A DNA stretch of 64,000 nt from an uncultured Alphaproteobacteria bacterium (GCA_944392835.1 CALXYB010000003.1:2179-66178), one strand, 5' to 3'. Positions 13,831-49,154 are shown, counted from the first letter of the stretch. A program made the numbers and translations. The notes: generated by a model from the sequence alone, not told the origin.

Positions 13831-13840
13831 ACAGCTTGGG

Positions 13841-27100: not shown

Positions 27101-27366
27101 CATATAACCGAGCAACTGAGGTTTTGGATGTTAAAGGTGTTATTGCTCCGGCCTATAGTATCAATACATTCATTGGAAAAATTCCGGTTGTCGGCAGCTT
27201 ATTAGCCGGAAAAGATGGTACGGTATTTGCCGCCAATTATACCATTGCGGGAGACATTGCTAATCCGAAAATAAGCATCAATCCATTATCCGCACTCAGT
27301 CCGAGTTCGCTGAAAGATTTGTTTTCAAATTTATTCGGAGATGATGACAATGTCAGAATCCGCTAA
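24124..27366 (+). CDS. Large AsmA/YhdP-like (DUF3971-type) envelope protein
   Basis: 1080 aa with a single N-terminal TM and a long beta-rich body. The C-terminal TIAGDIANPKISINPLSALSPSSLKDLF resembles the AsmA-like C-terminal region of YhdP/TamB relatives. Confidence 0.6.
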   Translation: MKKVSNKIYKARKIMDYTGVVFLVLLLLFLWQLYRGPIAVPFLKPYIIKALNHDDTEYQVTVEAVNLELVRSIQPIKIIANNVVYKKNDGTFIINAPKTSVSFSIRALLRGVIAPSSVEVNSPSVYLFTTYGVNKDNKNEINKKKLEYYFASFEDFVERFNSEDKAYPESYINDIAIKNAELEFHEVDLGRKWVFSDLNYTFERNFTNMETDFNALLKIKDRISTVGIDAEYRPGSSKLGLRFYFSDLVPADVVDTFLEKQLSENLYSVNLPMSGKIEALIDFADVLQHKDDLIKSLDTAVENINFQFEGGQGDIMFSEDENSRYDIASFLLEGNINGGVDKIEIKDADFDLGGQKTKLGLQISGMKKFFFENSLADLQIKARADVKKLAFDDLNKYWPRYVGEDAWLWVKDSIYGGNVENATFKLEFDYDKKSGKLKFANLDGKGTIIDSNLNYLKGMPDIKNMYGTAYFTGDSIKIDVDKGVSNGVILTGGSVLLYDLDKYDNFADINLQITSSITDALKLIDNPPLGYTSEMGIDANAIQGDAETNLSLKFELKNDLEPDEVKVNVKSVLTNVTIPRIVQEKTVKSETLNLVVDNNGMSVIGDALLDDIPLRLVWDENFQSKDYKSKYKISFKFDDSVKQKLGINVGMLNPPYIDGYADVDAEITKYNDKKFDIDILASLTDATIDYSFLGFRKPLKQQAAIKAKLSFVNDKLADIPNFGLSKEDFKVNGNIKLDNKGEVKVVDITRIKGPKTSAKAKIEFLSQPNKKIKINISGNSYDLTELFKRDEESMKSKARIKKMEPSKQEDDSELEKVTDTDIFIAVNNLWTNPDVPITNFAGSAELRNGIGFSEVHLVGNFGTSTKARIKADYVPKPNGEYFLSIDSNNAGSTLKVLRVYENMRGGNLKIEARRNKDKQFIGHASIRDFNIYNTPIIAKLLTMASFTGMVNLLTGEGMAFSHFDAPFEYKNKTLFVTNGKAFGNVMGITGNGAYNRATEVLDVKGVIAPAYSINTFIGKIPVVGSLLAGKDGTVFAANYTIAGDIANPKISINPLSALSPSSLKDLFSNLFGDDDNVRIR

Positions 27367-27841
27367 AATAAGAATAGGATTGGATTTTCACGGAGTTATA
27401 ACCGATAATCCGTCATATTTCAAAAACTTTGCCGCAGAAGCCTTAAAAAGAGGCATGGAAATATATATTATCAGCGGCGGGCCTAAGGCCACCATAGCAG
27501 AATATCTCAAGAAATGGCAAATTCCCTATACAACGATTTTTGCTATTTTAGATTATTATGATGCCAAGGGTTGCGTAAAGTTTTTTGACAATGGCGAATT
27601 TAAGGTTGACGATGAGCTGTGGAATTCCGCCAAAGCAACCTATTGCAAGGAACATCATATAGATTTGCACATAGACGATTCTTTATCTTACAGCGAAGGC
27701 TTCAGCACGCCTTTTTGCTATTATGACGGAGAAAACAAACAATGCCAGATAGAGGACCGTTGGCATATAAACTTCAAACATTCGCCTGAGCAAACCTTAA
27801 ACAATATTGAAGCATTTATCAAAGAACAAAGAGAAAAATAG
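27341..27841 (+). CDS. Hypothetical protein, possibly HAD-like with degenerate motif I
   Basis: IGLDFHGVITDNP resembles HAD motif I, but with His in place of the second Asp. A late DDS motif is present. The call is weak. Confidence 0.4.
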   Translation: MMTMSESAKIRIGLDFHGVITDNPSYFKNFAAEALKRGMEIYIISGGPKATIAEYLKKWQIPYTTIFAILDYYDAKGCVKFFDNGEFKVDDELWNSAKATYCKEHHIDLHIDDSLSYSEGFSTPFCYYDGENKQCQIEDRWHINFKHSPEQTLNNIEAFIKEQREK

Positions 27842-27842
27842 A

Positions 27843-28073
27843 TTATAAATTTTTGATGGCATAATCTCTATATTCTCTAAGACTTTTTTCGGAAAGCGAA
27901 GTGTCAGCGTTTAGATTGCGTAAATCAGAAATTTCTTCCATTTTAATACGGCAAATTTTATCTAAAGACTTTGCAGCAGCCTGATTAGTCATATCAGGAA
28001 TAAAATCAAATTTCTTTTCGGTTTCATCAAGTGTGTTAAAATTTTGTTGCAAGTAAAATTTATGTAAATTCAT
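27843..28073 (-). CDS. Hypothetical small protein co-transcribed with the repressor
   Basis: Start chosen at MNLHKFY (ATG 28073) with AAGGAA 7 nt upstream, 11 nt after the repressor stop. Confidence 0.45.
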   Translation of the reverse strand: MNLHKFYLQQNFNTLDETEKKFDFIPDMTNQAAAKSLDKICRIKMEEISDLRNLNADTSLSEKSLREYRDYAIKNL

Positions 28074-28084
28074 TAATCTGTTCC

Positions 28085-28705
28085 TTATTGGCTGGCCCAA
28101 ACAATTCGGTGAACAAGGTGAACATCATCAATATTGATAGAAAGTTTTTCCTTGCCGATAATCTCTTTTGTTTCAAGGGTTGTAGCCGTACGGCGGATAA
28201 ATTCGGCAACAACAATCTCATTATTTTTCATAAAGACGACAACGCGATCTCCGCCTCTGATTTCGGATGCCTGAGATAAGATTAAAAGAGTTCCCTCACG
28301 ATAAACGGGAGCAAAATTATCAGTGTTCAAATCAAGTGCATATAAATTATCTTTGCCGTCCGGAAACTGGATTTTTTGCCAGTTATTATTTGAAAAATCA
28401 GCTGAGATAGAGATACGTCCATCACAAAGGTCAGAATAGGAAACATAGGGAATGGAGTGTGTGAGTTTGTCCTCCTCATCATCTGAGACAAGGGCAAAAA
28501 ACTCATCAAAGCTGATATTGCAGACATCAATGATTTTGTTTAGGCTATCAAGCGATGGCCATCTTTTTTTACCATCCGGACGCGTGCGTTTGCTTTTATT
28601 AAAGGTTGTAGAATCAAGTCCGGCTTTTTTGGCCAGTCCGGATGGAGAAAGTCCATTAATTTTAGCTAACTTATCAACAGCTTCCCAAACTTGTTCATAT
28701 TTCAT
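28085..28705 (-). CDS. Phage CI/LexA-like repressor (N-terminal HTH plus C-terminal S24 peptidase-like domain)
   Basis: LSPSGLAKKAGLDSTTFNKSKR is an HTH. The C-terminal beta domain (GDRVVVFMKNNEIVVAEFIRR) is typical of S24 repressors. The gene is divergent from the phage-like genes. Confidence 0.8.
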   Translation of the reverse strand: MKYEQVWEAVDKLAKINGLSPSGLAKKAGLDSTTFNKSKRTRPDGKKRWPSLDSLNKIIDVCNISFDEFFALVSDDEEDKLTHSIPYVSYSDLCDGRISISADFSNNNWQKIQFPDGKDNLYALDLNTDNFAPVYREGTLLILSQASEIRGGDRVVVFMKNNEIVVAEFIRRTATTLETKEIIGKEKLSINIDDVHLVHRIVWASQ

Positions 28706-28861
28706 ATTTCACCTCAAAATCTAAAGATTTCAGCACATAAATAGATTATAAGACATTTTATGTTAGGAATCAAATCTTTTTTTATGTTGAAATTCCTACA
28801 ACTTTATATATAACTTTTAAAAGTTAACATTTGGTTAAGTTGTAATTTGGGGGACTAAAAT
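28706..28861. promoter_or_regulatory. Divergent control region with several symmetric elements
   Basis: Elements seen:
- ACATAAA-N15-TTTATGT (28735-28763);
- TAGGAAT-N21-ATTCCTA (28764-28798);
- direct 9-mers ttttatgtt at 28756 and 28780;
- 16-bp palindrome TAACTTTTAAAAGTTA (28811-28826);
- TTAA-N7-TTAA (28824-28838). Confidence 0.45.
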
Positions 28862-29191
28862 ATGAGGGAAGATTATGAGCCGTTTGATAATGCCGAAGAA
28901 GTATGGTTTTGGTTTTGTCAGTCTTTAGAAGCCAGAGGGGAAGGCCTGCGCTCAAGATGTGATTATTCTGGAAAAATAAGATGCTTGGAGATAGGTGATG
29001 TTGAGAGGATATTGAAAAGAATGCGCGCCAAAAGTGAAGTTAACAATCGCTGTCTGCGCGTGATGTTTAGATGGGGAAGAATAGGCACGCCGCCTTATTA
29101 TGACAAGCGCGCAAAACCAAGCGAAACCAGACTTTGGGAAAACGGAATTTATATTTTTGGTCTCTACCTGCAGGCAAAAGGAATTATATAG
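28862..29191 (+). CDS. Hypothetical early protein
   Basis: 109-aa ORF and the first gene rightward of the control region. I do not recognise a family. Confidence 0.55.
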   Translation: MREDYEPFDNAEEVWFWFCQSLEARGEGLRSRCDYSGKIRCLEIGDVERILKRMRAKSEVNNRCLRVMFRWGRIGTPPYYDKRAKPSETRLWENGIYIFGLYLQAKGII

Positions 29192-29192
29192 A

Positions 29193-29582
29193 ATGAACGA
29201 AAATACAAAGGCTTATGTTGTTTTTACAAATACAACAGGTTTATGGTGGCTAAGGTTTCTAAAATCAGGTTTTAGGCATTGTTATCTTTTGTTTTCAATG
29301 CAAAACGGACGCAAATGGTTGGAGATAAATCCTTATTCCAACCAAGTGGTTATAAGCTTACATAGATTTGATGAACCTCAAAGTATAGAGGATATATTAC
29401 AGATTAGGGGAGATAATTTGTCTTGTGCAGTTCAAATAAAAAATGCGCCGCAAAAATGTGCGCCTTTGGGTTTTTTTACTTGTGTTGAGTTGGTAAAGAG
29501 AGTTTTAGGGATTCATTCGGCAAGAATCATCACGCCGTATCAGTTGTATAAAAAATTAAAAGTTGTAGGAAAAAACTCTTGA
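29193..29582 (+). CDS. Hypothetical early protein
   Basis: Start chosen at MNENTK (ATG 29193), 1 nt after the previous stop. The ORF-track start at 29100 would overlap the previous gene. Confidence 0.5.
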   Translation: MNENTKAYVVFTNTTGLWWLRFLKSGFRHCYLLFSMQNGRKWLEINPYSNQVVISLHRFDEPQSIEDILQIRGDNLSCAVQIKNAPQKCAPLGFFTCVELVKRVLGIHSARIITPYQLYKKLKVVGKNS

Positions 29583-29607
29583 CAAATGATTTTTTTTATG
29601 TTACACC
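29579..29607 (+). promoter_or_regulatory. Candidate promoter (TTGACA, 17-nt spacer, extended -10 TGtTACACC)
   Basis: The TTGACA overlaps the stop of the upstream ORF. The -10 hexamer is weak, but a TG sits at the extended -10 position. Confidence 0.3.
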
Positions 29608-29658
29608 CTAAACATCACTTGCTAGTAGTGTATCTAAAATAAACTGAGCAATGAAAAA

Positions 29659-29688
29659 CAGACCTCCTGATGCGAGGTCTTTTTTTTA
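29659..29688 (+). terminator. Intrinsic terminator immediately upstream of the late operon
   Basis: agacctc ctgatgc gaggtct followed by 7 T, 16 nt before the ATG at 29704. Confidence 0.65.
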
Positions 29689-29703
29689 TGGGGTTTAATC
29701 AGA

Positions 29704-30015
29704 ATGACAACAAAAAAAATAAAAACGCTAAAGGCTCTGAAAAGCAGGCTTCGCAAAACGCTGCCCGAAAAAATTTCTGAGGTCATAGACAGCTATGAAA
29801 ATTTTTCGGAGCAACCCGTTCCGGAAGATGCCAAAGGTTTCAGCGCACATCATTCCGCTTGCAAGTCGGCAGTTGTACATGCCGAAACTCTCCTCAAACT
29901 TGCCGAGTGGACGGATAGCAAAGATACCGATTCGGAGCCTCAAAACGAGAACAAACAACTAATGTCGTTTTTGCAGGAAGCACAAGACGAACTGAGTTCA
30001 GATGATGAAGATTAA
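29704..30015 (+). CDS. Small acidic protein in the terminase small-subunit position
   Basis: 103 aa with a basic N-terminus and an acidic C-terminus. It overlaps the TerL start by 14 nt. The call is positional only. Confidence 0.35.
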   Translation: MTTKKIKTLKALKSRLRKTLPEKISEVIDSYENFSEQPVPEDAKGFSAHHSACKSAVVHAETLLKLAEWTDSKDTDSEPQNENKQLMSFLQEAQDELSSDDED

Positions 30016-31489
30016 TTTTTTTGAGTTTGTGTATGTCTGGTTCAGATTGCAGGGTCTAAGAGTTCCCAAACATCAAAAGAAGATGTCTAAGTGGTTGTCT
30101 TTTTTATGGAACAAAGAGGGTGACCGTCAAGCATTGCTGATGGCTTTCAGAAACTCCGGCAAGTCAACCATTGTCGGTCTTTTTTGCGCTTGGGTTTTAT
30201 ACACCAATCCGTCAATCAGAATTTTGGTTATGGCGGCAGATCATGCTTTGGCAAAAAAAATGGTGCGAAACGTGAAAAGAATTATAGAGCAACATCTGCT
30301 GACCAAGGGGCTTAAACCGCCGCGTTTGGACCAATGGGCATCAGACCAATTTACGGTTTGCCGCGCTTTGGAGCTTCGCGATCCGTCAATGTTGGCAAAA
30401 GGCTTGGGGGCGAACATTACGGGTTTGCGTGCAGACTTGATAATTTGTGATGATGTGGAGGTTCCCAAAAATTGCGATACGCCACTCAAGCGTCAGGAAC
30501 TAAGAGAGAAGTTAAATGAACTTGATTATATTCTAACGCCGAACGGCATGCAGCTTTATATCGGAACACCACATACTTATTATACGATTTATCAGACGGA
30601 AACAGATCCCAAGAAGCCGGATACAGAGCCTTTTTTGCAAGGGTTTACGAAGCTGTTGCTGCCTATCCTAAATACGGAAGGAAAAAGCGCTTGGCCTGAA
30701 AGATTTTCGGAAGAAAAAATTGCCGCTATAAGGATTCGTTCCGGCGAAAATAAATTTCTTTCACAGATGATGTTGCAACCCGTAAACTTCAGGGACAGCA
30801 CATTATCTCCGGAAAGACTTTGTGTTTATGACGGAGAGATAGAGATAACTTTTGCCAACGAACGTGAGATATTAAAAATCGGCGGTAAAAGGATGCTTTC
30901 AGCCTCTTGCTGGTGGGACCCGTCTTTTGCGGCAAAAGAGAAGGGGGACAATAGCGTCATTGCTTGCGTTTTTAGTGATGAAGACGGCAAGTTTTGGCTG
31001 CATGATATGGAGTATATTCGCATCCCTTCAGAGAATGCGGATAATGCGGCCACTTTACAATGCAGCAAAGTTGCGGATTTTTTGGTGCGCAATCACTTAT
31101 CATCTGTTCGGGTTGAGGTAAACGGCATCGGCAGATTTTTGCCGGGGATTCTCAAACAAGTTTTGAAAGAACGCAGGATTCGCGCGGCTGTTTTGGAGGC
31201 TTATTCCAAAGACAACAAACAGCAACGGATTTTAGAGGCCTTTGAGGTTTTATTGGCGGAACGCGCGCTCCATGTTCATCGCAAAATTTGGCAAACGCCG
31301 TTTATTGAGGAAATGCGCGAATGGAGTGTTGACGGAACCTCGCATGATGATGCCTTGGATGCGGTGGCTGGTTGCTTGGCTTCCGAGCCCATACGCATAG
31401 GTTCAACCATTGCCAACACACCTTTGTCAGCAGCCAAGTGGCAAGGAAACTCAAAACAATTTTCGGCAGAAACGAATTTTACTTTATAA
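30002..31489 (+). CDS. Terminase large subunit
   Basis: Walker A FRNSGKSTIVG and Walker B LIICDDVE. The C-terminal RNaseH-like nuclease has WWDPS...SVIAC and HDDALDAVAGCL. Confidence 0.88.
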   Translation: MMKINFFEFVYVWFRLQGLRVPKHQKKMSKWLSFLWNKEGDRQALLMAFRNSGKSTIVGLFCAWVLYTNPSIRILVMAADHALAKKMVRNVKRIIEQHLLTKGLKPPRLDQWASDQFTVCRALELRDPSMLAKGLGANITGLRADLIICDDVEVPKNCDTPLKRQELREKLNELDYILTPNGMQLYIGTPHTYYTIYQTETDPKKPDTEPFLQGFTKLLLPILNTEGKSAWPERFSEEKIAAIRIRSGENKFLSQMMLQPVNFRDSTLSPERLCVYDGEIEITFANEREILKIGGKRMLSASCWWDPSFAAKEKGDNSVIACVFSDEDGKFWLHDMEYIRIPSENADNAATLQCSKVADFLVRNHLSSVRVEVNGIGRFLPGILKQVLKERRIRAAVLEAYSKDNKQQRILEAFEVLLAERALHVHRKIWQTPFIEEMREWSVDGTSHDDALDAVAGCLASEPIRIGSTIANTPLSAAKWQGNSKQFSAETNFTL

Positions 31490-31501
31490 GGAGAAACAAC
31501 C

Positions 31502-31759
31502 ATGTTTTTAGATACCTTTAATTGGGTAACGATGATTGAGATTCCGCTGTTGGCAGCCTTGTTCAAAATCATCTTCAAACAAAAGAAGGATTGTGAAAAC
31601 TCAATCAGCTTTTGCAAGGATGCTCTGGCAGAGTTCAAGTTGCATGTTGCCCGTAACTATGTATCGGTAAATTATCTCAAAGATGTTGAAAACCGCATAA
31701 CCGATCATCTCCTGCGCATAGAAAAGAAACTTGATAATGTGGGGAGAAGCAAAAGATGA
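31502..31759 (+). CDS. Small membrane protein (holin or lysis-accessory candidate)
   Basis: 85 aa with one N-terminal TM and then a coiled coil. Directly precedes, and overlaps, the lysin gene. Confidence 0.4.
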   Translation: MFLDTFNWVTMIEIPLLAALFKIIFKQKKDCENSISFCKDALAEFKLHVARNYVSVNYLKDVENRITDHLLRIEKKLDNVGRSKR

Positions 31760-32172
31760 ACAAAGAGGCAGATATTTTAGCCCGAACCATTTACGGCGAA
31801 GCAAGAGGCGAGAGCATTTCCGGACAGGAGGCAATCGCCTCTGTTGTTTTAAACCGCGTCGCATTTGCCAAAAAGAAGGGGCGCTATTGGTGGGGCAATA
31901 GCATAGCTGGTGTATGTCGGGCTCCAAAGCAATTTTCCTGCTGGAACGCAGACGACCCAAACTGCAAAATCATTAAGAAAGTTGATGAGTCAGATATTGG
32001 TTTTTGCATTTGCAAAAGAATAGCTTTGCGGGCAGTTTCCGGTTTGCTTGAAGATAAAACCAGTGGAGCCACGCATTATCACACCAGAAATCTGCGCCCA
32101 AAATGGTCGGTCGGTAAAATTCCTTGTGCGGAAATCGGCAGTCATATTTTTTATAACGACATTGAGGCATAG
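31756..32172 (+). CDS. Cell-wall hydrolase, SleB/Hydrolase_2 type (endolysin)
   Basis: ARTIYGEARGES...AIASVVLNRV...QFSCWN...ATHYH are hallmark SleB-family motifs. Confidence 0.8.
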   Translation: MNKEADILARTIYGEARGESISGQEAIASVVLNRVAFAKKKGRYWWGNSIAGVCRAPKQFSCWNADDPNCKIIKKVDESDIGFCICKRIALRAVSGLLEDKTSGATHYHTRNLRPKWSVGKIPCAEIGSHIFYNDIEA

Positions 32173-32174
32173 CC

Positions 32175-32492
32175 ATGAACAAATTAATAAACGGCATTTC
32201 TTTTCCGTTCAAGCTCATAGGGGGCTTAAGCCATAAGAGCTTTAGCGGAAGAAAAAACAAACCGCTTTGGCAATCGGCCTTTGGTTGGTCGGTATCCATA
32301 GCTTGGTTTATGGTTATGAGCACAATCTGTTGGGCGGTAATCAGCGGCAATCCTGATGCCTCCGAAATTATTATGGCTATGGTGGAAACTTCGCCTTTAT
32401 GGGGCGTAGCATTAGGTGTTTTGGGTATTGCTTTTGTTAAAAGCGATAATTCACCATCTTCGGCAAGACCGAGAAAGCAAACAAAAAAATAA
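32175..32492 (+). CDS. Membrane protein (holin or lysis-accessory candidate)
   Basis: 105 aa with 2-3 TM segments and a basic C-terminus, adjacent to the lysin. Confidence 0.4.
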   Translation: MNKLINGISFPFKLIGGLSHKSFSGRKNKPLWQSAFGWSVSIAWFMVMSTICWAVISGNPDASEIIMAMVETSPLWGVALGVLGIAFVKSDNSPSSARPRKQTKK

Positions 32493-32518
32493 CTCAAACT
32501 TTATGAAAGGAACAAAAA

Positions 32519-32710
32519 ATGGGAGGATTTAAACCGTCTCGTAAACTTCTTATTTTGCAAATGATAGAGCAAGACCGCAAAAGAAAAGAAGAGCTGGAGC
32601 GCAAACATCGCGGTTATGACAGCTTAGTCAAAACTTCTTATACCGGCATCAAGGAAGAAGAAGATAATGAGAAGAACCCGACAGAACGCAAAAAACTTCT
32701 TGGAGAATAA
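32519..32710 (+). CDS. Small highly charged protein
   Basis: 63-aa Lys/Glu-rich ORF with an RBS, located just before the portal gene. Confidence 0.4.
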   Translation: MGGFKPSRKLLILQMIEQDRKRKEELERKHRGYDSLVKTSYTGIKEEEDNEKNPTERKKLLGE

Positions 32711-32712
32711 AA

Positions 32713-34272
32713 ATGGAAAACGACAAACTAGAAAAATTGGTGGCTCGTTACCAAAAAGCCTCTGAGAAAAAAAGCAACTGGGAAGAACATTGGCGAGAGT
32801 GCTATGAATATGCTTTTCCGCAGCGAGAAAATGTCAGCTCGGAGGGCTTGTCTGAAAATTATGGTGCCAAAAACAATTTGCACTTATATGACGGCACGGC
32901 ACCGGACGCGGTGGACCAGTTGGCTTCATCTTTGCTGGCGGAACTTACGCCGGCCTGGGCAAAATGGTTTGGTCTGAAATCCGGCAGTGAATTGACGGAA
33001 ACGGAAAAAACACAAGTAGCGCCTGTTTTGGAAAAAACCACGGATATTATGCTCCAAAATTTTGAGCACTCAAATTTTGCGGTAGAAATTCACCAATGCT
33101 ATCTGGATTTGGTAACGGCAGGCACGGCTTGCTTAATGTTTGAGGAAGCGCCTTTGGGCGAGGCTTCTGCGTTTCGGTTTTATGCCGTACCCTTAAGAGA
33201 AATAGCCATAGAAGAAAGCGCATCCGGAAAAATTGACACAACATTCAGATGCTCACGCATCAATTTGGGCGGTATCCGAGAGCGTTTTCCGGAAAGCGAA
33301 GTCCCCGCGGATTTCTTAAAGAAAAGCGAGGATGAGCCGGATTATAAAGTTCGCTTGATAGAGGCTGTAACACCGCGTAACGGCAATTGCGGCGCTTGCG
33401 GTTATGATTATACGGCATTTATCTGGGATAGCGATGTTGGTTTTAATTCCGGCTTTATCTTAAGGGAGGGTGTCTTTGAGACATCACCTTTTATCAATTT
33501 TCGTTGGTTGAAAGCCCCCGGAGAGATTTATGGGCGTTCGCCGGTGATGAAAGCTTTGCCGGATATCAAGACCGCAAACAAAGTGGTAGAGCTCATTTTG
33601 AAAAATGCCTCTATTTCTGTAACGGGCATTTGGCAGGCAGATGATGACGGCGTGCTCAATCCGGCAAATATCAAATTGGTTCCGGGAGCCATTATTCCGA
33701 AAGCTGTTGGTTCAAAGGGCTTAACGGCATTGGAAGCCCCCGGAAAGTTTGATGTTTCGCAGCTCGTGCTGGAAGATTTGCGCAAAAGAATCAACCATGC
33801 TTTGTTGGCAGACAGACTGGCAGAGATTAACACGCCGTCTATGACTGCCACCGAAGTCTTGGAGCGTTCGGCAGAAATAGCCCGCATCTTGGGCGCAAGC
33901 TTTGGGCGTTTGCAGTCAGAACTTTTAACACCGCTGCTTAAAAGAGCTTTTTATATCTTAAGAAGACGCGGCGATGTTATGAACTTTGATTTAGACGGCA
34001 AAATTGTTGACCTTCAGTACAAATCTCCTTTGGCAATGTCTCAGGCCAGAAAAGATGTCAACAACGTAACCGAATGGATAACTCAGGCGGCAATGCTTGG
34101 CGCAGATGGTCAAGCCGCCGTAAATATGTTTGAAGCCGCCAAGTGGCTTGGACATACCCTGAATGTTCCGGCTTCTTTGATTGTTGAGGAAAAACCGGCG
34201 ACTGATACAGGTTTAGCAGAGCTTGCGTCAGCCATAACGGGGGAGGCAACACAAGATGCCGGAGTTTTATGA
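32713..34272 (+). CDS. Portal protein, T7 gp8-like head-to-tail connector
   Basis: 519 aa. It has a YGRSP motif. MTATEVLERSAEIARILGASFGRLQSELLTPLL parallels the T7 gp8 segment VTAEEIRYVASELEDTLGGVYSILSQELQLPL as I recall it. Confidence 0.8.
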   Translation: MENDKLEKLVARYQKASEKKSNWEEHWRECYEYAFPQRENVSSEGLSENYGAKNNLHLYDGTAPDAVDQLASSLLAELTPAWAKWFGLKSGSELTETEKTQVAPVLEKTTDIMLQNFEHSNFAVEIHQCYLDLVTAGTACLMFEEAPLGEASAFRFYAVPLREIAIEESASGKIDTTFRCSRINLGGIRERFPESEVPADFLKKSEDEPDYKVRLIEAVTPRNGNCGACGYDYTAFIWDSDVGFNSGFILREGVFETSPFINFRWLKAPGEIYGRSPVMKALPDIKTANKVVELILKNASISVTGIWQADDDGVLNPANIKLVPGAIIPKAVGSKGLTALEAPGKFDVSQLVLEDLRKRINHALLADRLAEINTPSMTATEVLERSAEIARILGASFGRLQSELLTPLLKRAFYILRRRGDVMNFDLDGKIVDLQYKSPLAMSQARKDVNNVTEWITQAAMLGADGQAAVNMFEAAKWLGHTLNVPASLIVEEKPATDTGLAELASAITGEATQDAGVL

Positions 34273-34480
34273 TACCAAGGACATGAGTGAAGAGGAAATC
34301 CGAAACGCTTATGTCAGGTGTTTTGCAAGCAGAGAGGGAAAGATAGTTCTCTCTCATTTAAGAAAAATTACCCTAGAGCGCTATCTCGGGCCGGCCAGTT
34401 CTTCCGATGAACTCAGACATCTGGAAGGTCAGCGGCATTTAGTAAGTTGTATCTTGGCGCTTTCGGGTAATAAATTTTAA
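34256..34480 (+). CDS. Small phage protein (unknown)
   Basis: 74-aa ORF overlapping the portal stop by 17 nt. Confidence 0.45.
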   Translation: MPEFYDTKDMSEEEIRNAYVRCFASREGKIVLSHLRKITLERYLGPASSSDELRHLEGQRHLVSCILALSGNKF

Positions 34481-34507
34481 CAACTTCTTTTTTTGAAAGG
34501 AAAAATA

Positions 34508-35203
34508 ATGAACAAAAAATTTGAAGGAAATCTGATTGAAAAATCACCTTCCGCTCAGGCAGGCAAACCGGCCGGACTTCCGGACAAATTCTGGAATGAA
34601 GAAACCGGTCAGGTAAACCTTGAGGCTTTGATTGAAGACTATAATTATATGGCTTCGCGCGATGATAATTTGGTTGAAATTCACAATCGTAATATGCCGG
34701 AAAGTTATGATAAATATATGGTTAAATTTCCACATCCTTTGCTTGACAGAGATGATGAAATTTTCAAACGCTTTTATGAAAAAGGCTTTACGAACGAGCA
34801 GGCACAGTTGGTTTATGATTTGGCCAACGAAAGAGTCATTCCGGTCCTAGACAGCCTCGCATCGGATTATGAAGCAGAAAGACAACTGGACAAACTCAAA
34901 CGCTATTTCGGTTCAGAGGAAAAATTCAGCGAAGTCTGCCGCCAGATTTCCGTTTGGGCAAAAAGAAACCTGCAAACCGATGTTTATGAGGCTTTGGGCT
35001 CAACCGCGGATGGTGTAATTGCCTTGTATAAGATGATGTCTTCAAATGAGCCGTCTTTGGGCAAAGACAGAGACTTTGGCGAAGACTTAAGCGAGGAAAA
35101 CTTGCGCAAGATGATGGAAGACCCGCGTTATTGGCGAGACAAAGACAAAGCCTATATCGCCAAAATCACCAAAGGCTTTGAAAAACTTTATCCTGAGAAA
35201 TAA
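34508..35203 (+). CDS. Scaffolding protein candidate
   Basis: 231-aa acidic, helical protein between portal and capsid (the T7 gp9 position). ATG at 34508 follows aaagga. Confidence 0.5.
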   Translation: MNKKFEGNLIEKSPSAQAGKPAGLPDKFWNEETGQVNLEALIEDYNYMASRDDNLVEIHNRNMPESYDKYMVKFPHPLLDRDDEIFKRFYEKGFTNEQAQLVYDLANERVIPVLDSLASDYEAERQLDKLKRYFGSEEKFSEVCRQISVWAKRNLQTDVYEALGSTADGVIALYKMMSSNEPSLGKDRDFGEDLSEENLRKMMEDPRYWRDKDKAYIAKITKGFEKLYPEK

Positions 35204-35265
35204 AACCTCAGGATTTTTTTTAATCAAAACAAAATCTTTTTTTTTAATTTTATGGAGAAAAAATA

Positions 35266-36096
35266 ATGTCAACACAAGTAAGTGAATCTTTTATCAAACA
35301 ATTTGAAGCAGATGTTCACCTTTGTTATCAGCAAAACGGTTCTAAGCTGAGAAACACTGTTCGTTATAAGAATGGTGTGAAGGGCTCTTCAACCGTATTC
35401 CAAAAGGTTGGCAAGGGTATTGCTTCTCAAAAAGCGCGCCATGGTTTGGTTCCGGTAATGAGCTTGGATCATTCTCCCGTTGAATGCGAGTTGCAGGATT
35501 ACTACGCCGGCGATTGGGTAGATGCTTTGGACGAGCTCAAATTGAGCATTGACGAGCGCCGGGTTATTGCCAACTCCGGAGCTTATGCTTTGGGCCGCAA
35601 GACAGATGAGCTGATTATCAATGCTTTGGCTCAGGTTGGTCCGGAAAATGATGTCGGTGATTATGCCGAGGTCATGACCAAAAAAGAAATTTTGGATGCT
35701 TTTGCCAAGCTGAATGAAAACGATGTTCCGGATGATGGTCAGCGTTTTGGCTTGGTTGGTCCGCATCAGTGGAATGCTTTGCTCAATATTCAGGAATTTT
35801 CAAATTCGGATTATGCCGGAGATAACTTGCCGTTCTTAAAAGGTACGGAAAGCCGCAAATGGTTGGGTATTAACTGGATTATGCACACAGGTTTGCCGCT
35901 TGATGGCACCAATCGCGATTGCTTCATCTTCCACAAAACCGCAGTCGGACATGCTTGCGGTCAGGAAGTAAAGTCAGACATCAGCTGGCACGGCGACCAT
36001 GCGGCACACTTCGTTAATAATATGATGAGCCAAGGTGCTTGCCTGATTGACGGCACGGGTGTCATCCGCATCAAATGCAAAGAAGCTTCAATTTAG
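35266..36096 (+). CDS. Major capsid protein candidate
   Basis: 276 aa in the gp10 position after the scaffold, with a strong RBS (tggagaaaaaataATG) and a terminator shortly downstream. Family membership is not verifiable by eye. Confidence 0.65.
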   Translation: MSTQVSESFIKQFEADVHLCYQQNGSKLRNTVRYKNGVKGSSTVFQKVGKGIASQKARHGLVPVMSLDHSPVECELQDYYAGDWVDALDELKLSIDERRVIANSGAYALGRKTDELIINALAQVGPENDVGDYAEVMTKKEILDAFAKLNENDVPDDGQRFGLVGPHQWNALLNIQEFSNSDYAGDNLPFLKGTESRKWLGINWIMHTGLPLDGTNRDCFIFHKTAVGHACGQEVKSDISWHGDHAAHFVNNMMSQGACLIDGTGVIRIKCKEASI

Positions 36097-36119
36097 TAGA
36101 ATAAGAAAGGAATAAAACA

Positions 36120-36380
36120 ATGGCATTTAATTCAAAAAACTTTAGCGTAATGGCCTATGCAAATGGTTTCACACTTTGGAACTATCAAACTCCCGATACT
36201 TTGGAAACCGTCAAAGGAGCAGGGTATTTTAATGATGTTTCTGCCTTTGCGCGCAAGGGAGATATGATTTTGGTCGTAGCTAATAATGCGGCCGCTGTTG
36301 CACCGGCAATTTTGAGTGTAACGGATATTGCCGCCGGCTCCGTAACAGTAGCTGACACCATCTCTCAGGCAGCCGCTTAG
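36120..36380 (+). CDS. Small head-associated protein candidate (decoration or cement?)
   Basis: 86-aa ORF with RBS aaaggaa, co-transcribed with the capsid gene ahead of the internal terminator. Confidence 0.4.
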   Translation: MAFNSKNFSVMAYANGFTLWNYQTPDTLETVKGAGYFNDVSAFARKGDMILVVANNAAAVAPAILSVTDIAAGSVTVADTISQAAA

Positions 36381-36418
36381 GTTTATAAAAACAAACGCAT
36401 TATTAGCAAATGATAACC

Positions 36419-36451
36419 GGGAAGTCGCGTAAAAGCGGCTTCCCATTTTTT
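36419..36451 (+). terminator. Internal terminator after the capsid genes
   Basis: gggaagtcgc gtaaaa gcggcttccc (10 bp including one G-U pair) followed by attttttat. Confidence 0.55.
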
Positions 36452-36464
36452 ATGGAGAAACAAA

Positions 36465-37034
36465 ATGGCTTATACCGATATCAGCATTTGTTCAAATGCT
36501 TTATTAAAAATCGGCGCGGAGAGCATAACATCTTTTCTGGACGGAACAGCGGAGGCAGAAGTTGCCGCAAACTTATACCCGATGATAAGAGACGGTTTGT
36601 TAGCCTCATATCCTTGGAGCTTTGCCGTTGGCCAAAAATCTTTACCGCGTTTGGCCGGAGGTCCTCTGGCAGATTATAGTTATGCATACCAGTTGCCTAA
36701 CGACTTCTTGCGTGTTTTGTCAGCAGGAAGCGGAAGAAATGGCAGAGGCATAGAATATCGCATCGTTGAAAACCGTCTGCATACAAATGTTCCGGAAGTT
36801 AATCTGACATATATTTTTCGCCCGCATGAAAGCTTGTTTCCGGCATATTTTTGCGAACTGCTGATTGCGAGATTAGCTTCAGAATTTTGCCTCCCGTTGA
36901 CTGAAAGCACCACACGTTCGGAATATCTGCAAAAAACCTTTGAGGAACTGGAAAAAAGAACCCGTTTGATTGACTCACAACAATCAACCCCCAAATGTTT
37001 TGAGGACTTCACACTGGTGGAGGCAAGACAATGA
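36465..37034 (+). CDS. Tail adaptor/gatekeeper, T7 gp11-like
   Basis: 189 aa (T7 gp11 is 196 aa). ICSNALLKIGAESITSFLDGTAEAEVAANLYPMIRDGLLASYPWSF parallels T7 gp11 [46 protein letters not shown] as I recall it. Confidence 0.7.
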   Translation: MAYTDISICSNALLKIGAESITSFLDGTAEAEVAANLYPMIRDGLLASYPWSFAVGQKSLPRLAGGPLADYSYAYQLPNDFLRVLSAGSGRNGRGIEYRIVENRLHTNVPEVNLTYIFRPHESLFPAYFCELLIARLASEFCLPLTESTTRSEYLQKTFEELEKRTRLIDSQQSTPKCFEDFTLVEARQ

Positions 37035-38932
37035 GTAATATGCTTCAGGTCAAAACAAATTTCACGGCCGGATATATCGGGCGAAATTTGTATGGGCGAG
37101 GTGATTTAAGCATATTTGAAAATGGTGCTCGCACGTTAGAAAATGTCATTATCCATCCAACCGGCGGGGTATCAAGACGCAAAGGCTTGGCAAAAGTAGA
37201 TAAACTAAGCAAACGCGCGAGATTAATACCATTTGAGTTTAATACGGAGCAAATTTACCTAATCGCCATAAGCGAAGGAGAAATACGTGTTTATAGTGAA
37301 GGTGTTTGCATCAAGACATTGAGCTCTCCTTGGACAGAGGAACAGCTACATTCATTAAATTATACGCAAAGCGCGGATACCTTGTTGGTCGTCCATCCGG
37401 ATGTTGCGCCGCAACAAATCACGCGCGGTAATAATGAAGATTGGCAAATCTCAAAGATGGAATATTATACAAAAGACGGAAGAATTTATTGTCCGTTTTA
37501 TAATTATTATAACCATAAAGTAAATATCTCACCAAGCGGAACAAGTGGAACAATCACCATATCATCCCCCTCAGAAATATTTACAACAGCTTCTATCGGA
37601 AGTCTGATTAATGTTCGCGGAGGGCAGGTAACAATAAGTGAATATGTTAGCCCAACAGAAGTAAAGGCAACAGTAAACTATAAACTTTCATCATCAGGTT
37701 CAACGAACGACTGGGAGGAATCAGCTTTTTCACCACAAAGAGGTTGGCCGAATTCTATAACCTTTCATCAAAATCGGCTAGTCTTTGGTGGCTCTAAGAG
37801 TTTGCCAAACCGCTTATGGTTTTCCAAATCGGGAGATTTATTTAATTTTGATATCGGAGAAGGATTAGATGATGAGGCCATAGAGTTTGGCATATTGTCA
37901 GATCAAGTTAATGTTATCAAATCATTAGTTTCTGCAAGACATTTATTGGTTTTTACGACCGGTGCGGAATGGATGGTAAGTGGAAATCCCTTAACCCCGA
38001 CCAGCATTCAACTCAGTCGTCAAACCAGCACGGGAAGCTATGACCAATGCAGTATATATCCGCAACAAATTGACGGCGCTACGGTATTTGTATCACAAAG
38101 CGGACATCAATTGCGCGAATTTTTATATACCGATACGGAACAAGCATATCAGTCAAAAGACTTAACCCTAATGTCCGGAGAGATAATAAGCACCCCCGTA
38201 GATAACGACTTTAGCCGTGATGAATGTGTTTTATATATTGTATTGGCAGATGGTACGGTTTCTTGCCTGACCAGTTATCGCACGGAAGAAGTAACCGCTT
38301 GGAGCAAATTAAAGACGGAAGGAAAGTTTTTATCAATAGCCGTAATTGGTAATGAAATTTATTTCTGTACCCTAAGAAAAAATGGTTACTTCATTGAAAA
38401 GATGAGTGATGAATTTTATGCCGATTGCGCTATCAAACTTCATTCGGAAACTCCAAAAAACTTGTGGTCAGGCTTGGAGCATCTGGAAGGATGTGAGGTT
38501 TCTGTTCTGGCTGATGATTTTAGTGTCGGAAAATACAAGGTTGAGGATGGCTGCATAGATTTATTGGAGGAGGCCTCGGATTTGGTCGTTGGTTTGCCTT
38601 ATGAACATATCATTGAGCCGTTACCTTATGTTGCCGATGCTGTCAGACCATACTCACCACAAGCCTTAAGGGTAATTAGCGGCCTTTTCCGTATCTTAAA
38701 TACACGCTGTTTTTGTATTGATATGGGAAGTGGTTATTTGCAAGTTCCGCTAAAACGTCTTTTTAAGGATGAAATTTTAGATGCTCCACCGAGTTTTTAC
38801 AGTGGTGATGTCCGCCTTCGTGCTTTGGGTTGGATAAGAGAGATGGACAAGCCGCTTTGGAGCATAAAATCAGATGAACCGTTGGCATTTACCTTATTGT
38901 CAGCAGTATTAGAAGTTAAAATCAAAGGATAA
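37031..38932 (+). CDS. Tail nozzle, T7 gp12-like
   Basis: 633 aa. RGWPNSITFHQNRLVFGGSKSLPNRLWFSKSGDLFNFD parallels T7 gp12 WPSFVGSSINDVFFFRNRLGFLSGENIILSRTAKYFNFYP as I recall it. The gene overlaps the gp11-like stop. Confidence 0.7.
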   Translation: MSNMLQVKTNFTAGYIGRNLYGRGDLSIFENGARTLENVIIHPTGGVSRRKGLAKVDKLSKRARLIPFEFNTEQIYLIAISEGEIRVYSEGVCIKTLSSPWTEEQLHSLNYTQSADTLLVVHPDVAPQQITRGNNEDWQISKMEYYTKDGRIYCPFYNYYNHKVNISPSGTSGTITISSPSEIFTTASIGSLINVRGGQVTISEYVSPTEVKATVNYKLSSSGSTNDWEESAFSPQRGWPNSITFHQNRLVFGGSKSLPNRLWFSKSGDLFNFDIGEGLDDEAIEFGILSDQVNVIKSLVSARHLLVFTTGAEWMVSGNPLTPTSIQLSRQTSTGSYDQCSIYPQQIDGATVFVSQSGHQLREFLYTDTEQAYQSKDLTLMSGEIISTPVDNDFSRDECVLYIVLADGTVSCLTSYRTEEVTAWSKLKTEGKFLSIAVIGNEIYFCTLRKNGYFIEKMSDEFYADCAIKLHSETPKNLWSGLEHLEGCEVSVLADDFSVGKYKVEDGCIDLLEEASDLVVGLPYEHIIEPLPYVADAVRPYSPQALRVISGLFRILNTRCFCIDMGSGYLQVPLKRLFKDEILDAPPSFYSGDVRLRALGWIREMDKPLWSIKSDEPLAFTLLSAVLEVKIKG

Positions 38933-38948
38933 AAGAAAGGAGAAAATC

Positions 38949-39470
38949 ATGGGAGGATTATCAGCGGCCGCAGCTGCCGGAACAGCAGGTTCAGCAGGAG
39001 CAGCGGGAGCAGCAGGTTCAGCCGGAGCAGCAAGCAGCATTTTAGGCGGAGCTTCTGCTCTGGGTGCATCAAAAATAGCATCACAAGCAAGTGGCGGCTT
39101 ATCATTAAAGTCGCTATTAGGACCAATCGGTACGGCAAGTGATATAAAAAGCATTTTTGATTCTAAAAGTTCGGCCAAAAGGCAAGAAAAAAATGCTACA
39201 ATATTACAATATCTGAATATGCAACGTAAGAAGAATATCTTGGAGCAACAACTAGCTACAAGACATGCGCGTATGTCCAGTATGGGTATATCATCTTCCG
39301 CTTCGGCAGATGCAGCCAATAATCGGCTTATTGATGAAGCTTTTGATGATATTGAGAGAGATAACGTCGCATTCATGTCTCAGCAAGAAGAATACAACAA
39401 TACCCAAAACCAATATCGTAAGAATCTTCTGGATAAAGGGTTATCTATCGCCAATAAAGTATTAAAATAA
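38949..39470 (+). CDS. Gly/Ala-rich virion-associated protein candidate
   Basis: 173 aa. The N-terminal ~60 aa are low complexity (GGLSAAAAAGTAGSAGAAGAAGSAGAASS), followed by a coiled coil. This is the position of internal or tail-accessory proteins. Confidence 0.4.
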   Translation: MGGLSAAAAAGTAGSAGAAGAAGSAGAASSILGGASALGASKIASQASGGLSLKSLLGPIGTASDIKSIFDSKSSAKRQEKNATILQYLNMQRKKNILEQQLATRHARMSSMGISSSASADAANNRLIDEAFDDIERDNVAFMSQQEEYNNTQNQYRKNLLDKGLSIANKVLK

Positions 39471-39479
39471 GGAGGTATA

Positions 39480-39674
39480 ATGCCGAGAAGAAAGCTCACC
39501 TATCAAGAAAAACGTCGTAGGGCTTATGAAAAAACTTTACCTTTGGGCGACCAATTAGATGCCATTTTGAAAGCTTTTGATATGGTTTTGCAAGATGGAG
39601 GCGATTTGCCTTATGAGTTGATAGACATTATTGAAAAATGGCAAGATATTAAAGAAAAATATCCCAAGTCCTGA
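39480..39674 (+). CDS. Small protein, last gene of the late operon
   Basis: 64-aa ORF with RBS aaggagg, followed by a strong terminator. Confidence 0.4.
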   Translation: MPRRKLTYQEKRRRAYEKTLPLGDQLDAILKAFDMVLQDGGDLPYELIDIIEKWQDIKEKYPKS

Positions 39675-39677
39675 TAA

Positions 39678-39718
39678 ATATCCCCCGAAGTTTGGCTTCG
39701 GGGGATATATTTTTTTTG
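39678..39718 (+). terminator. Strong intrinsic terminator ending the late operon
   Basis: atatcccccgaag tttgg cttcgggggatat followed by a T-run of 8. Confidence 0.8.
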
Positions 39719-46942: not shown

Positions 46943-47028
46943 TGGTAGGGGTAGTCAGACTTGAACTGACACGGCCTGAGGCCACAAGATTTTGAGTCTA
47001 GCGCGTCTACCAGTTCCGCCATACCCCC
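46943..47028 (-). tRNA. tRNA-Leu, anticodon CAA (class II, long variable arm)
   Basis: The reverse complement is GGGGGTATGGCGGAACTGGTAGACGCGCTAGACTCAAAATCTTGTGGCCTCAGGCCGTGTCAGTTCAAGTCTGACTACCCCTACCA. It aligns with the E. coli tRNA-Leu architecture. There is one U-U mismatch in the anticodon stem. Confidence 0.9.
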
Positions 47029-47135
47029 ATCGTTTACGAGAAGAATAGATATAATATTTATTTCCAGTCGTCAATAGTTTTTTTACTAAAAATCATTAAA
47101 AATATCAATAAATTTGCAAGAAAAGGGGTAAGACA

Positions 47136-48647: not shown

Positions 48648-48678
48648 AAAAACCTCTCAAATTTGAGAGGTTTTTTTT
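48645..48678. terminator. Bidirectional terminator
   Basis: aaaaaaa cctctcaa at ttgagagg tttttttt. Confidence 0.75.
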
Positions 48679-48703
48679 ATTTTTCAACTCTAAAAAAGTG
48701 CGA

Positions 48704-48955
48704 TTATTTTGCAGATTTTTTAGTAGAAGAAGTGCTCTTGCAAGAAGAAGTTTTGCTGCAAGTTTTCTTAGAAGAAGCAGAGGTCTTCTTTGAGTTGCAA
48801 GAAGTGTTAGACTTGCAAGAAGAAGATTTGCAATTGTTAGAAAACTGAGCTACAGCCAAAGACCAAAAATACTCGTCCTGACCCATCGGGCGACCAGCAT
48901 TTTCCCACAAATAGTAAGCAGCTTCTTTGATTGCATTTTCGTTGTATTTAACCAT
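48704..48955 (-). CDS. DUF2934-like protein with a Ser/Lys/Cys-rich repetitive tail
   Basis: IKEAAYYLWENAGRPMGQDEYFW matches the DUF2934 signature. The tail is NNCKSSSCKSNTSCNSKKTSASSKKTCSKTSSCKSTSSTKKSAK. Start chosen at MVKYNEN (48955) after ggag. Confidence 0.65.
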   Translation of the reverse strand: MVKYNENAIKEAAYYLWENAGRPMGQDEYFWSLAVAQFSNNCKSSSCKSNTSCNSKKTSASSKKTCSKTSSCKSTSSTKKSAK

Positions 48956-49154
48956 AACTAACTCCAAATAAAAATAAAAAATGTTTGCTAACACGTTCTA
49001 ATATACATTCAAAATTTTATACGTCAACAACAAATCTTGAGATAATATTGATTTTGCAAAATAAAAGATAAACAGGTTATGAATTTGCCTTGCAATTAAA
49101 ATGAGAAGAATTTATATCTAATTTTGAAGGGCGATTTTATTATCAAAATTAATT

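Follow-up and report, generated by a model that had tools for sequence, protein, structure and literature searches.

Three families of gene transfer agents (GTAs) are formally recognised, and the viriform-type criteria applied to such agents are host-encoded, caudovirus-like genes without self-propagation and co-evolution with the host (PMC9662315). RcGTA packs ~4 kb of DNA in oblate T=3 heads (PMC12946183) and has a headful-type, P22-related large terminase (TerL) (PMC7947584). FpGTA is near-ubiquitous within its genus (PMC12946183), and the TerL of Sulfitobacter phage pCB2047-C nests within the BaGTA TerL clade (PMC9662315). The head of podophage LME-1 has T=7 symmetry and a diameter of ~60 nm (PMC12407071). 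Here, we describe an element found in a 64,000-nucleotide stretch of DNA from an uncultured Alphaproteobacteria bacterium (GCA_944392835.1, CALXYB010000003.1:2179-66178; referred to as the window, with positions counted from its first letter). The element is a compact module of 19 genes of the T7/LME-1 type at positions 27843-39708 (11.9 kb). It encodes a DNA-filled, short-tailed head together with lysis functions and nothing for self-propagation, and selection maintains every one of its genes. Comparative genomics gives good support to the view that it would be a domesticated phage remnant. With moderate confidence, we take it for what is left of a temperate T7/LME-1-type podophage that was domesticated long ago, has become fixed in the chromosome of a gut alphaproteobacterium related to Scatocola, is inherited vertically and most probably serves in the GTA-like export and transfer of DNA.

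Retention at a chromosomal site

Twenty-seven related loci were compared (L followed by a number denotes a locus of our collection). The cluster was found at the same chromosomal site in three genus-level clades, flanked by yhdP and a 166-amino acid open reading frame (ORF), o166, on the left and by the genes for an esterase, SBP, mlaC, gltX and cysS on the right. Identity across these clades ranged from 47 to 65% for YhdP, from 70 to 73% for GltX and from 76 to 90% for the capsid protein. Two neighbor-joining (NJ) trees, one of six flank proteins and the other of six cluster proteins, had an identical topology, with deep nodes not settled, and the agreement holds across distances at which synonymous sites are saturated. 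Pairwise distances of cluster and flank were tightly correlated (r = 0.99; Mantel 0/2000), the slope indicating that the cluster evolves at 0.67-0.93 times the rate of its flanks. The identical capsid protein, in identical synteny, was further found on at least 22 metagenomic contigs. The carriers identified in a scan of GTDB-representative genomes are uncultured gut Alphaproteobacteria, the closest named genus being Candidatus Scatocola (Rhodospirillales at NCBI).

Ratios of non-synonymous to synonymous substitution (dN/dS), computed against the sister species L007, ranged from 0.007 to 0.22 over the cluster and lay within the range of the flanks except for the early and lysis genes. The lowest values were those of the capsid protein (0.007), the lysis-cassette protein with a single transmembrane (TM) segment (0.009) and o86, the gene after the capsid (0.011), followed by the adaptor (0.024), portal (0.026), TerL (0.038) and nozzle (0.044). 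The values were 0.056 for o64 and 0.068 for o173 at the end of the cluster, and 0.083 for the repressor, 0.113 for o109 and 0.216 for o126 at its beginning. Those of the flanks were 0.024 (cysS), 0.030 (YhdP), 0.031 (gltX), 0.043 (esterase) and 0.060 (SBP). No disruptive stop or frameshift was found in 18 genes over 12-27 loci, the few stops seen in orthologues falling upstream of true starts or at natural ends. Two more distant relatives with other right flanks, L172 and L173, carry exactly the same gene set. Taken together, the shared site, the congruent trees, the selection and the intactness of the genes are the signature of a host-maintained element rather than of a decaying prophage. A preliminary description of this DNA had proposed either a cryptic prophage or a host-retained particle-producing module. 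Retention by the host is what the shared site, the intact, selected and co-diverging genes and the lack of att sites argue for, and the making of particles is predicted from the genes.

A second sampling, started from the esterase flank gene, yielded three homologues on long contigs, one with the cluster (L175) and two with an empty site (L176 and L177). In L176 (7434-8001), the esterase gene follows yhdP-o166 after 75 bp, making this a clean empty site, and in L177 (6736-8001) one unrelated hexapeptide-repeat gene separates yhdP-o166 from the esterase. The edges of the element were placed at ~27843 and ~39708 on the basis of what it adds to the empty site of L176. Since genomes with an empty site have o166 too, this ORF (27341-27841, overlapping the yhdP stop; phrog_13623, 5e-16, function not assigned in PHROG) is regarded as a host operon gene outside the element; by eye, its sequence looks HAD-like. 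Loss of the cluster from L176 and L177 and its never having been inserted there both fit the NJ tree and cannot be told apart rigorously. An old insertion followed by loss is favored by L172, in which the cluster adjoins yhdP even though its YhdP (47%) is more diverged than the one in L176 (59%).

Neither the gene table nor the Pfam table of the window revealed an integrase, replication or RNA polymerase (RNAP) gene in or beside the block, and no phage-like genes were found elsewhere in the 64 kb. A search for att-like direct repeats between 26.5 and 41 kb, and one for an att core at the junctions as compared with the empty site of L176, returned short chance matches only. The nearest tRNA genes lie at 2950 and 46943, with none within 7 kb of the element. 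Past the nozzle gene, only a 173-aa and a 64-aa ORF are encoded and there is no internal core or ejectosome protein, fibre or spike; L172 and L173 likewise lack fibre and core genes. GC content is 0.435 in the cluster and 0.434 in host genes, and relative synonymous codon usage (RSCU) is correlated between the two (r = 0.90). On all these counts (the missing integrase, replication and RNAP genes, att repeat, adjacent tRNA, core and fibre genes; the YhdP and esterase/SBP/mlaC/gltX flanks; the host-like composition; the intact ORFs, here extended to orthologues without frameshifts or premature stops), the gene table, repeat search and tRNA positions agree with what the preliminary description had claimed.

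Gene content and regulatory region

Genes were assigned from Pfam, PHROG and PDB comparisons of the window proteins. The plus-strand block at 29704-39674 holds the packaging, lysis, head, adaptor and nozzle genes and two small ORFs, with a closing terminator. To this block, as described earlier, the element adds a divergent repressor, an 85-aa ORF, o109, o126 and an operator-like repeat. The features, in order, are as follows.

27843-28100, minus strand: 85-aa ORF at the left edge of the unit, co-oriented with the repressor gene and overlapping its end
28085-28705, minus strand: repressor with a Cro/C1-type helix-turn-helix (HTH) and an S24-fold domain (Peptidase_S24, 7.8e-6; HTH_26, 1.6e-4; phrog_4, 'transcriptional repressor')
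28764-28798, divergent promoter region: operator-like inverted repeat TAGGAATCAA...TTGAAATTCCTA, putatively an operator
28823-28838, just upstream of the first forward gene: direct repeat GTTAAC-ATTTG-GTTAA (GTTA-N7-GTTA)
28862-29191, plus strand: 109-aa early ORF (o109), adjoining the repressor family-wide (27-61% identity)
29202-29582, plus strand: 126-aa early ORF (o126), also listed as a 160-aa ORF from 29100 and called at 126-129 aa in identical contigs
29660-29680: terminator-like hairpin, bidirectional, separating the early ORFs from the packaging genes
29704-30015, plus strand: 103-aa acidic protein in the TerS position (phrog_31793, 6e-46, no function annotated)
30002-31489, plus strand: TerL of the T7 gp19 type (Terminase_6C)
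31502-31759, plus strand: holin- or spanin-like protein of 85 aa with a single TM segment at its N-terminus (phrog_29007)
31756-32172, plus strand: SleB-type cell-wall hydrolase, the endolysin (Hydrolase_2, 2e-20; phrog_938, 'endolysin')
32175-32492, plus strand: 105-aa holin-like protein with two predicted TM segments
32519-32710, plus strand: 63-aa charged ORF, conserved in part of the clade only
32713-34272, plus strand: portal of the T7 gp8/LME-1 type (Head-tail_con, PF12236, 2e-133)
34256-34480, plus strand: Bbp19-like small protein (PF25181, 6e-14)
34493-35203, plus strand: scaffolding protein (Phage_T7_Capsid, PF05396, 7e-16)
35266-36096, plus strand: major capsid protein (MCP), 276 aa (Phage_capsid_2, PF19821, 3e-75)
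36120-36380, plus strand: 86-aa protein after the capsid, o86 (phrog_18004, 1.5e-27)
36419-36444, plus strand: terminator-like hairpin after the capsid pair (10-bp stem, 7 GC pairs)
36465-37034, plus strand: adaptor, 189 aa, T7 gp11 equivalent (phrog_394, 'tail protein', 1.7e-49; phrog_9239, 'tail tubular protein')
37031-38932, plus strand: nozzle, 633 aa, T7 gp12 equivalent (Phage_nozzle, PF25675, 3e-10; phrog_376, 2e-149)
38949-39470, plus strand: 173-aa protein (o173), first gene 3′ of the nozzle; its N-terminus is rich in Gly/Ala and its C-terminus is helical
39480-39674, plus strand: 64-aa ORF (o64), 62-86% identical among genus-level relatives
39678-39708, plus strand: strong intrinsic terminator at the right edge (14-bp stem, then a T-run)

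Every gene that the preliminary description had listed is thus located where it had been placed. The small protein in the TerS position is acidic as reported (21 D+E versus 14 K+R), the three named TerL motifs, RNSGKST, LIICDDVE and HDDALDAV, lie at residues 50, 146 and 448, and a Hydrolase_2 lysin does sit between a 1-TM and a 2-TM protein. The T7 gp8-like portal, the scaffold, the 276-aa capsid candidate with its 86-aa partner, the gp11-like adaptor and the gp12-like nozzle, some of them recognised at the level of motifs, all matched profiles or structures of the expected kind, and the two terminal ORFs and strong terminator close the block.

In TerL, the N-terminal half matches the T7 gp19 structures 4bij and 8dgc (E 4e-23), and conservation of its catalytic motifs (Walker A, Walker B, nuclease) extends over 27 sequences. 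The gene in the TerS position overlaps the start of TerL and its product is 54-72% identical among genus-level relatives; its position suggests that it may act as TerS. In L173, o64 is located between this gene and TerL, and o64 may therefore be tied to packaging. The portal matches that of LME-1 (9efk_A, 7e-33) and T7 portals (~1e-11), and the closest solved structure to the capsid protein is the LME-1 MCP (9eg4_A, E 2.6e-28). The scaffold probably starts 15 nt further downstream, which would yield a protein of 231 aa. For the adaptor, PDB matches were the Carin-1 connector (8ck1_E, 3e-4) and the LME-1 adaptor (9efk_T, 1e-3), and for the nozzle they were the Carin-1 nozzle (8ck1_A, 2e-57) and LME-1 (9efk_M, 1e-32). 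A PDB sequence search with o86 returned no match; judging by gene position in LME-1, it may be the counterpart of a head-decoration gene. Compared with the gene that first follows the nozzle in Azospirillum and in phage Hodr, o173 showed no similarity, and a role for it as a minimal internal or ejection protein would be a guess. A 9-nt periodic repeat of the GCAGGAGCA type at 38967-39029 encodes its Gly/Ala-rich N-terminus.

Homologues of the 85-aa left-edge ORF (33-39% identity) adjoin the repressor in genus-level relatives, L172 included, and the ORF is missing from L176, in which the o166-like gene and the esterase gene are direct neighbours; it had no Pfam or PHROG match. No Pfam, PHROG or PDB match was found for o109 either. 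With 70 homologues, o126 has invariant His26, Cys27, Cys94 and Lys99. Its AlphaFold2 (AF2) model is confident (pLDDT 88) and in BFVD matched only uncharacterised phage proteins (TM 0.75-0.79), and no PDB analogue was retrieved either by sequence or with the model. The idea of a permuted NlpC/P60- or LRAT-like His/Cys enzyme was accordingly considered unsupported.

The repressors were aligned to E. coli LexA, with the Ala84-Gly85 cleavage site, Ser119 and Lys156 as reference points. Repressor homologues from Rhodovibrio, Azospirillum and the uncultured L132, L150 and L153 keep AQAG, GDSM and K at these positions; all Scatocola-type repressors, that of the window included, have YSDLCDG, a TDNF-like sequence and Glu; and the Enterousia homologue consists of the HTH part alone. 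The window-clade repressor thereby appears to have lost the ability to undergo RecA-stimulated, LexA-type self-cleavage, in which case its relief must come via another host signal or partner. As its dN/dS shows selection, the protein is probably still a repressor.

The pattern of the inverted repeat at 28764-28798 occurs just once in the window, against a chance expectation of 0.04 matches, and across genera every Scatocola-type relative examined has the repeat in the corresponding intergenic spot. The position of GTTA-N7-GTTA is conserved in relatives as well, and the corresponding spacer of Rhodovibrio (L162) contains an exact GTTC-N7-GTTC, presumably the alphaproteobacterial form of the LexA box. 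Since the occurrence of GTTA-N7-GTTA in the window is not above chance, its reading as an SOS box was dropped and it is retained merely as a positionally conserved motif. Further downstream, the hairpin at 29660-29680 may serve as a regulatory checkpoint and that at 36419-36444 as an attenuator, and the two together suggest that expression could be staged and graded.

The remainder of the window is filled with host chromosome genes, among them those for RNase E, HflK/C and DegP and glycogen and flagellar genes. Two segments (1000-8000 and 47000-50000) have a GC content of 0.36-0.39, below the window mean of 0.42; the second adjoins tRNA-Leu (46943-47028, minus strand) and carries a TPR-methyltransferase gene.

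Relatives in bacteria and phages

Our protein collection contained 4617 homologues of the capsid protein, with at least 588 capsid-positive stretches in species-representative genomes and at least 584 in IMG/VR, where the matches are mostly 4-15-kb pieces of the same cluster. One deposited piece, the 5,084-bp MT838907.1 (L174) from human faeces in Mexico, is named 'UNVERIFIED Bacteriophage sp.' and has a capsid gene 80% identical to that of the window, a case of pieces of a chromosomal cluster being deposited and classed as phage. Homologous clusters were present in hundreds of Alphaproteobacteria. Among cultured bacteria, exact look-up showed carriers in Thalassospira, Rhodovibrio, a Roseomonas and many species of Azospirillum, in the last of these on the main chromosome. 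The order in cultured carriers is repressor, o109, o126, portal, Bbp19-like gene, scaffold, capsid, o86, adaptor, nozzle, ~3 kb of extra DNA, TerS-position gene, TerL and lysis genes. Part of this extra DNA, in both Azospirillum and Rhodovibrio, is a post-nozzle gene for 646-676 aa, which in Azospirillum is pectate-lyase-like and accompanied by a tail-collar protein. In the window clade, the packaging-lysis block comes before the portal gene, and no spike-like gene is left.

The locus of Azospirillum lipoferum 4B (L167; FQ311868, 2443614-2464432) begins at the capsid gene, right after fur and sod, and encodes the tail-collar protein and a 676-aa pectate-lyase-like spike. Its portal and scaffold are not adjacent to the capsid, and split loci thus occur in the cluster family. 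Upon treatment with mitomycin C, this strain is reported to produce particles with ~10 kb of random DNA (Boyer et al. 2008, as relayed in PMC3899980). Azospirillum genome papers, that of 2012 included, tie the ~10-kb particles to another region of RcGTA-like organisation and make no mention of the L167 locus.

Candidatus Enterousia belongs to the order Rs-D84 and has genomes smaller than 1 Mb (PMC12306168). Interspersed among its cluster genes are a lipoate-ligase gene, dnaB and one coding for a double-HTH protein, and its TerL is split into a 197-aa ATPase ORF and a nuclease ORF of ~300 aa, ~3.3 kb apart (13758-14351 and 17610-18533 in L028; also in L025-L086), between which dnaB, the double-HTH gene and a 217-aa ORF lie on the opposite strand. 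The order nozzle, N-terminal TerL half, dnaB, C-terminal TerL half, portal was shared by 34 of the 38 Enterousia species loci; in L035, the portal gene sits between the two TerL halves. Relative to L028, Enterousia capsid proteins were 74-94% identical, versus 58-88% for DnaB.

Phages sharing the module were also found. The 34.2-kb Pelagibacter phage Hodr has a portal 35%, a capsid 43% and a nozzle 28-35% identical to those of the window, and post-nozzle proteins of 783 and 1247 aa. Closer to the window are L100 (IMG/VR 3300028422_001967, 34,955 bp; capsid 63%), with post-nozzle ORFs of 748, 1036 and 454 aa, the last giving a weak match to the N-domain of the T7 tail fibre, and L056 (OY764545.1, a 2.8-Mb chromosome), with post-nozzle ORFs of 669 and 618 aa. 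With capsids 63-65% identical to that of the window, L100 and L056 are genuine (pro)phage-type relatives and likely stand close to the free-living ancestor type. A complete phage with the same genes had been named in advance as an observation that would speak for an ordinary prophage; Hodr and L100, the latter with core-like as well as fibre-like genes, do share the module, as distant relatives rather than as the same element. The family forms a reduction series leading from phage to a form with a spike-like gene, to the fibreless form of the window and to the interleaved form of Enterousia.

Possible functions and comparison with known systems

In the mechanism that we propose, relief of the repressor would lead to transcription of the operon in a subpopulation of cells, and procapsids would assemble on the portal with the help of the scaffold into heads that, by homology to LME-1, are probably T=7 and ~60 nm across. 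The T7-type terminase would then package unreplicated chromosomal DNA in situ, up to a capacity of ~30-40 kb if the head is T=7, a figure taken from the 34-kb genome of Hodr. The adaptor and nozzle would join, and holin and lysin would lyse the cell, releasing fibreless, short-tailed particles.

A number of points weigh against this reading. The weakest link is delivery, as a particle lacking both fibre and ejectosome has no known route for bringing DNA into a Gram-negative host. Podophages of Gram-negative bacteria need an ejectosome to cross the periplasm (PMC11440229), and delivery by a particle without one would therefore halt at the envelope unless the recipient took up the DNA or fibre and ejection proteins came from elsewhere. 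Delivery by RcGTA makes use of recipient uptake functions. As a rule, a terminase of the T7 type depends on replicated concatemers that carry terminal repeats, and the capacity of a T=7 head, if its geometry is unchanged, would exceed the 11.9-kb locus, unlike the situation in RcGTA and BaGTA. Selection and co-divergence show retention, not the kind of benefit, and GTA activity, read from the genes, is plausible rather than settled. Retention is not universal either, the empty sites of L176 and L177 indicating that some lineages dispense with the element. That the capsid is more conserved than gltX is weaker evidence than it seems, because the capsid is 63% identical even to that of the phage relative L100, and the element could, formally, have been gained independently at one site, because the NJ trees leave their deep nodes unsettled.

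Given the weak delivery step, functions other than transfer stay alive as rivals, and we allow a modest chance that particles are made for altruistic lysis or public goods, as a PBSX-like weapon, or as a decoy or means of interference against related podophages. The cluster's lack of a receptor-binding protein and of an ejectosome makes delivery look impaired, its conserved lysis cassette would fit a role other than transfer, its repressor-controlled layout resembles that of defective prophages, and the same ambiguity was raised for FpGTA in a 2026 gut study (PMC12946183). The intact terminase, portal, adaptor and nozzle, with dN/dS values of about 0.04 or less, would however be superfluous for lysis or interference alone, and no mechanism is known by which a fibreless short-tailed particle would kill.

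Dependence on a helper is rather improbable. Fibres, ejection proteins or DNA amplification would in this case be supplied by a co-resident phage or by other loci, as with the accessory genes of RcGTA and the second locus of FpGTA. In its favor are the 646-676-aa post-nozzle gene of Azospirillum and Rhodovibrio clusters and the tail-collar protein of Azospirillum, which the window clade has lost, the split loci of the family (A. lipoferum 4B) and the visibility of only 64 kb of the genome. Within those 64 kb, nothing else is phage-like; the fibreless gene set is stable across genus-level relatives; and the hallmarks of a satellite (integrase, replication initiator, att sites) are not in the unit. 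Reliance on a helper overlaps with our preferred explanation, that of a domesticated particle for DNA export and transfer, rather than excluding it.

It is highly unlikely that the locus is an ordinary decaying prophage remnant without current function. Decay would be in keeping with the missing replication, integration, core and fibre modules, with the two relatives that lack the element at the same site and with the partial module at the locus of A. lipoferum 4B; set against this are 19 ORFs that are all intact in the relatives examined, conserved catalytic motifs, dN/dS values of 0.007-0.22, a topology matching that of the flanks at saturated synonymous distances and the persistence of the cluster in genomes smaller than 1 Mb. 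Least credible of all is an active miniature temperate phage inserting site-specifically beside yhdP by means of host or trans-acting recombinases, for which the clean empty site of L176 with its 75-bp spacer and the presence of a repressor and early genes could be invoked, against the lack of an integrase, excisionase, replication gene and att core, a cluster phylogeny that mirrors the flanks and the interleaving with dnaB and lipoate ligase in Enterousia.

A broader proposal, which we put forward tentatively and with less confidence than the domestication of the window element for GTA-like transfer, is that the clusters make up another GTA-type family, domesticated independently from a T7/LME-1-like podophage and spread across much of the Rhodospirillales-like Alphaproteobacteria (Scatocola-type lineages; Enterousia; Azospirillum, Thalassospira and Rhodovibrio). 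Gut lineages would have shed the fibre and ejectosome and uncoupled the repressor from SOS self-cleavage, implying a route of delivery and control undescribed for any GTA. Confirmation of particles would make this one more independent case of phage domestication, here from a T7-type ancestor, beside the three recognised families and a few candidates. Hundreds of species carry such clusters, many of them human and livestock gut commensals, and the cluster persists even in genomes below 1 Mb. The question of particles is directly testable, since homologous clusters occur in the culturable and tractable Azospirillum and Thalassospira, and the cluster may also be of relevance to the unexplained particles of Azospirillum lipoferum with their ~10 kb of random DNA. 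The graded series from phage to interleaved form, with its stepwise loss of repressor self-cleavage, offers rare material on the passage from a virus to a cellular, organelle-like device.

Compared to the T7-morphology phages LME-1, Carin-1 and Hodr, the element has homologous portal, Bbp19-like, scaffold, MCP, small, adaptor and nozzle genes in the same order and a SleB-type lysin. These phages, in contrast, are 30-35 kb long with large post-nozzle proteins and many more genes, including a tail fibre in LME-1, whereas the window unit measures 11.9 kb, occupies one fixed chromosomal site and co-diverges with its host. Of what defines a T7-like or LME-1-like podophage, it has the structural module and lacks the core or ejectosome, the fibre or spike and the replication, integration and RNAP genes. 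The integrase, replication initiator, att sites and variable insertion that mark capsid-forming phage-inducible chromosomal islands (PICIs) and other phage satellites were not found in it. PBSX-type defective prophages are similarly repressor-controlled and chromosomally fixed, with structural and lysis modules; PBSX is myovirus-like with a contractile killing tail (PMC12946183), whereas the window element has a nozzle only.

BaGTA (Bartogtaviriformidae) is likewise an alphaproteobacterial domesticated particle, tailless or short-tailed in some reports (PMC9662315). Its portal gene of 1863 bp (~620 aa) and TerL gene of 1344 bp (~447 aa) belong, however, to an unrelated head and packaging module, and it requires 29 genes over ~79 kb together with a run-off replication origin. 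Kinship with BaGTA was rejected by proxy, no window protein being similar to those of phage pCB2047-C and the gene sizes being different. RcGTA (Rhodogtaviriformidae) shares with the element its alphaproteobacterial host, chromosomal fixation, vertical inheritance, slow evolution and lack of replication and integration genes (PMC9662315), and differs in its long-tailed ancestry, being described as similar to a small, tailed bacteriophage, and in the order terminase, portal, prohead protease, capsid (PMC3899980). The element is not RcGTA-like: its TerL is of the T7 gp19 type, a scaffold replaces the protease, and where RcGTA has a long tail it has an adaptor and a nozzle. A repressor of its own and lysis genes within the cluster are further differences from RcGTA.

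A search of the literature, the coverage of which was incomplete, found no description of this cluster, of a T7-like or podovirus GTA in Alphaproteobacteria, or of RF32 or Enterousia phage genes. The preliminary description had supposed that a podovirus-type GTA would be new, a premise that is out of date in view of the podovirus-like FpGTA (2026, PMC12946183) and of the tailless or short-tailed forms reported for some BaGTA (PMC9662315); the novelty of a podovirus ancestry is in this sense partly overtaken by the FpGTA work. The genomic criteria of a GTA, namely the lack of self-propagation genes, co-evolution with the host and purifying selection, are all displayed by the element, with random packaging and transfer as predicted functions. 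As to control by the host, the element keeps a phage-type repressor, which in this clade is without the LexA-type cleavage site and the Ser/Lys dyad. That its head is too small for its own genes is doubtful, since capacity would exceed the locus if T=7, in contrast to classical GTAs. Among known systems, FpGTA of Faecalibacterium is conceptually the closest, likened here by description and not by sequence homology. It too belongs to a gut bacterium and comprises a ~10.5-kb operon with TerS, TerL, portal, scaffold and MCP genes, and is probably podovirus-like; it differs in residing in Firmicutes, in having been shown to package 8.4-8.9 kb of random DNA and in a second locus, which holds genes for baseplate, fibre and lysis (PMC12946183). 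Judged by its genes, the window cluster is a strong candidate for a new family of particles that would carry DNA and belong to the bacterium.

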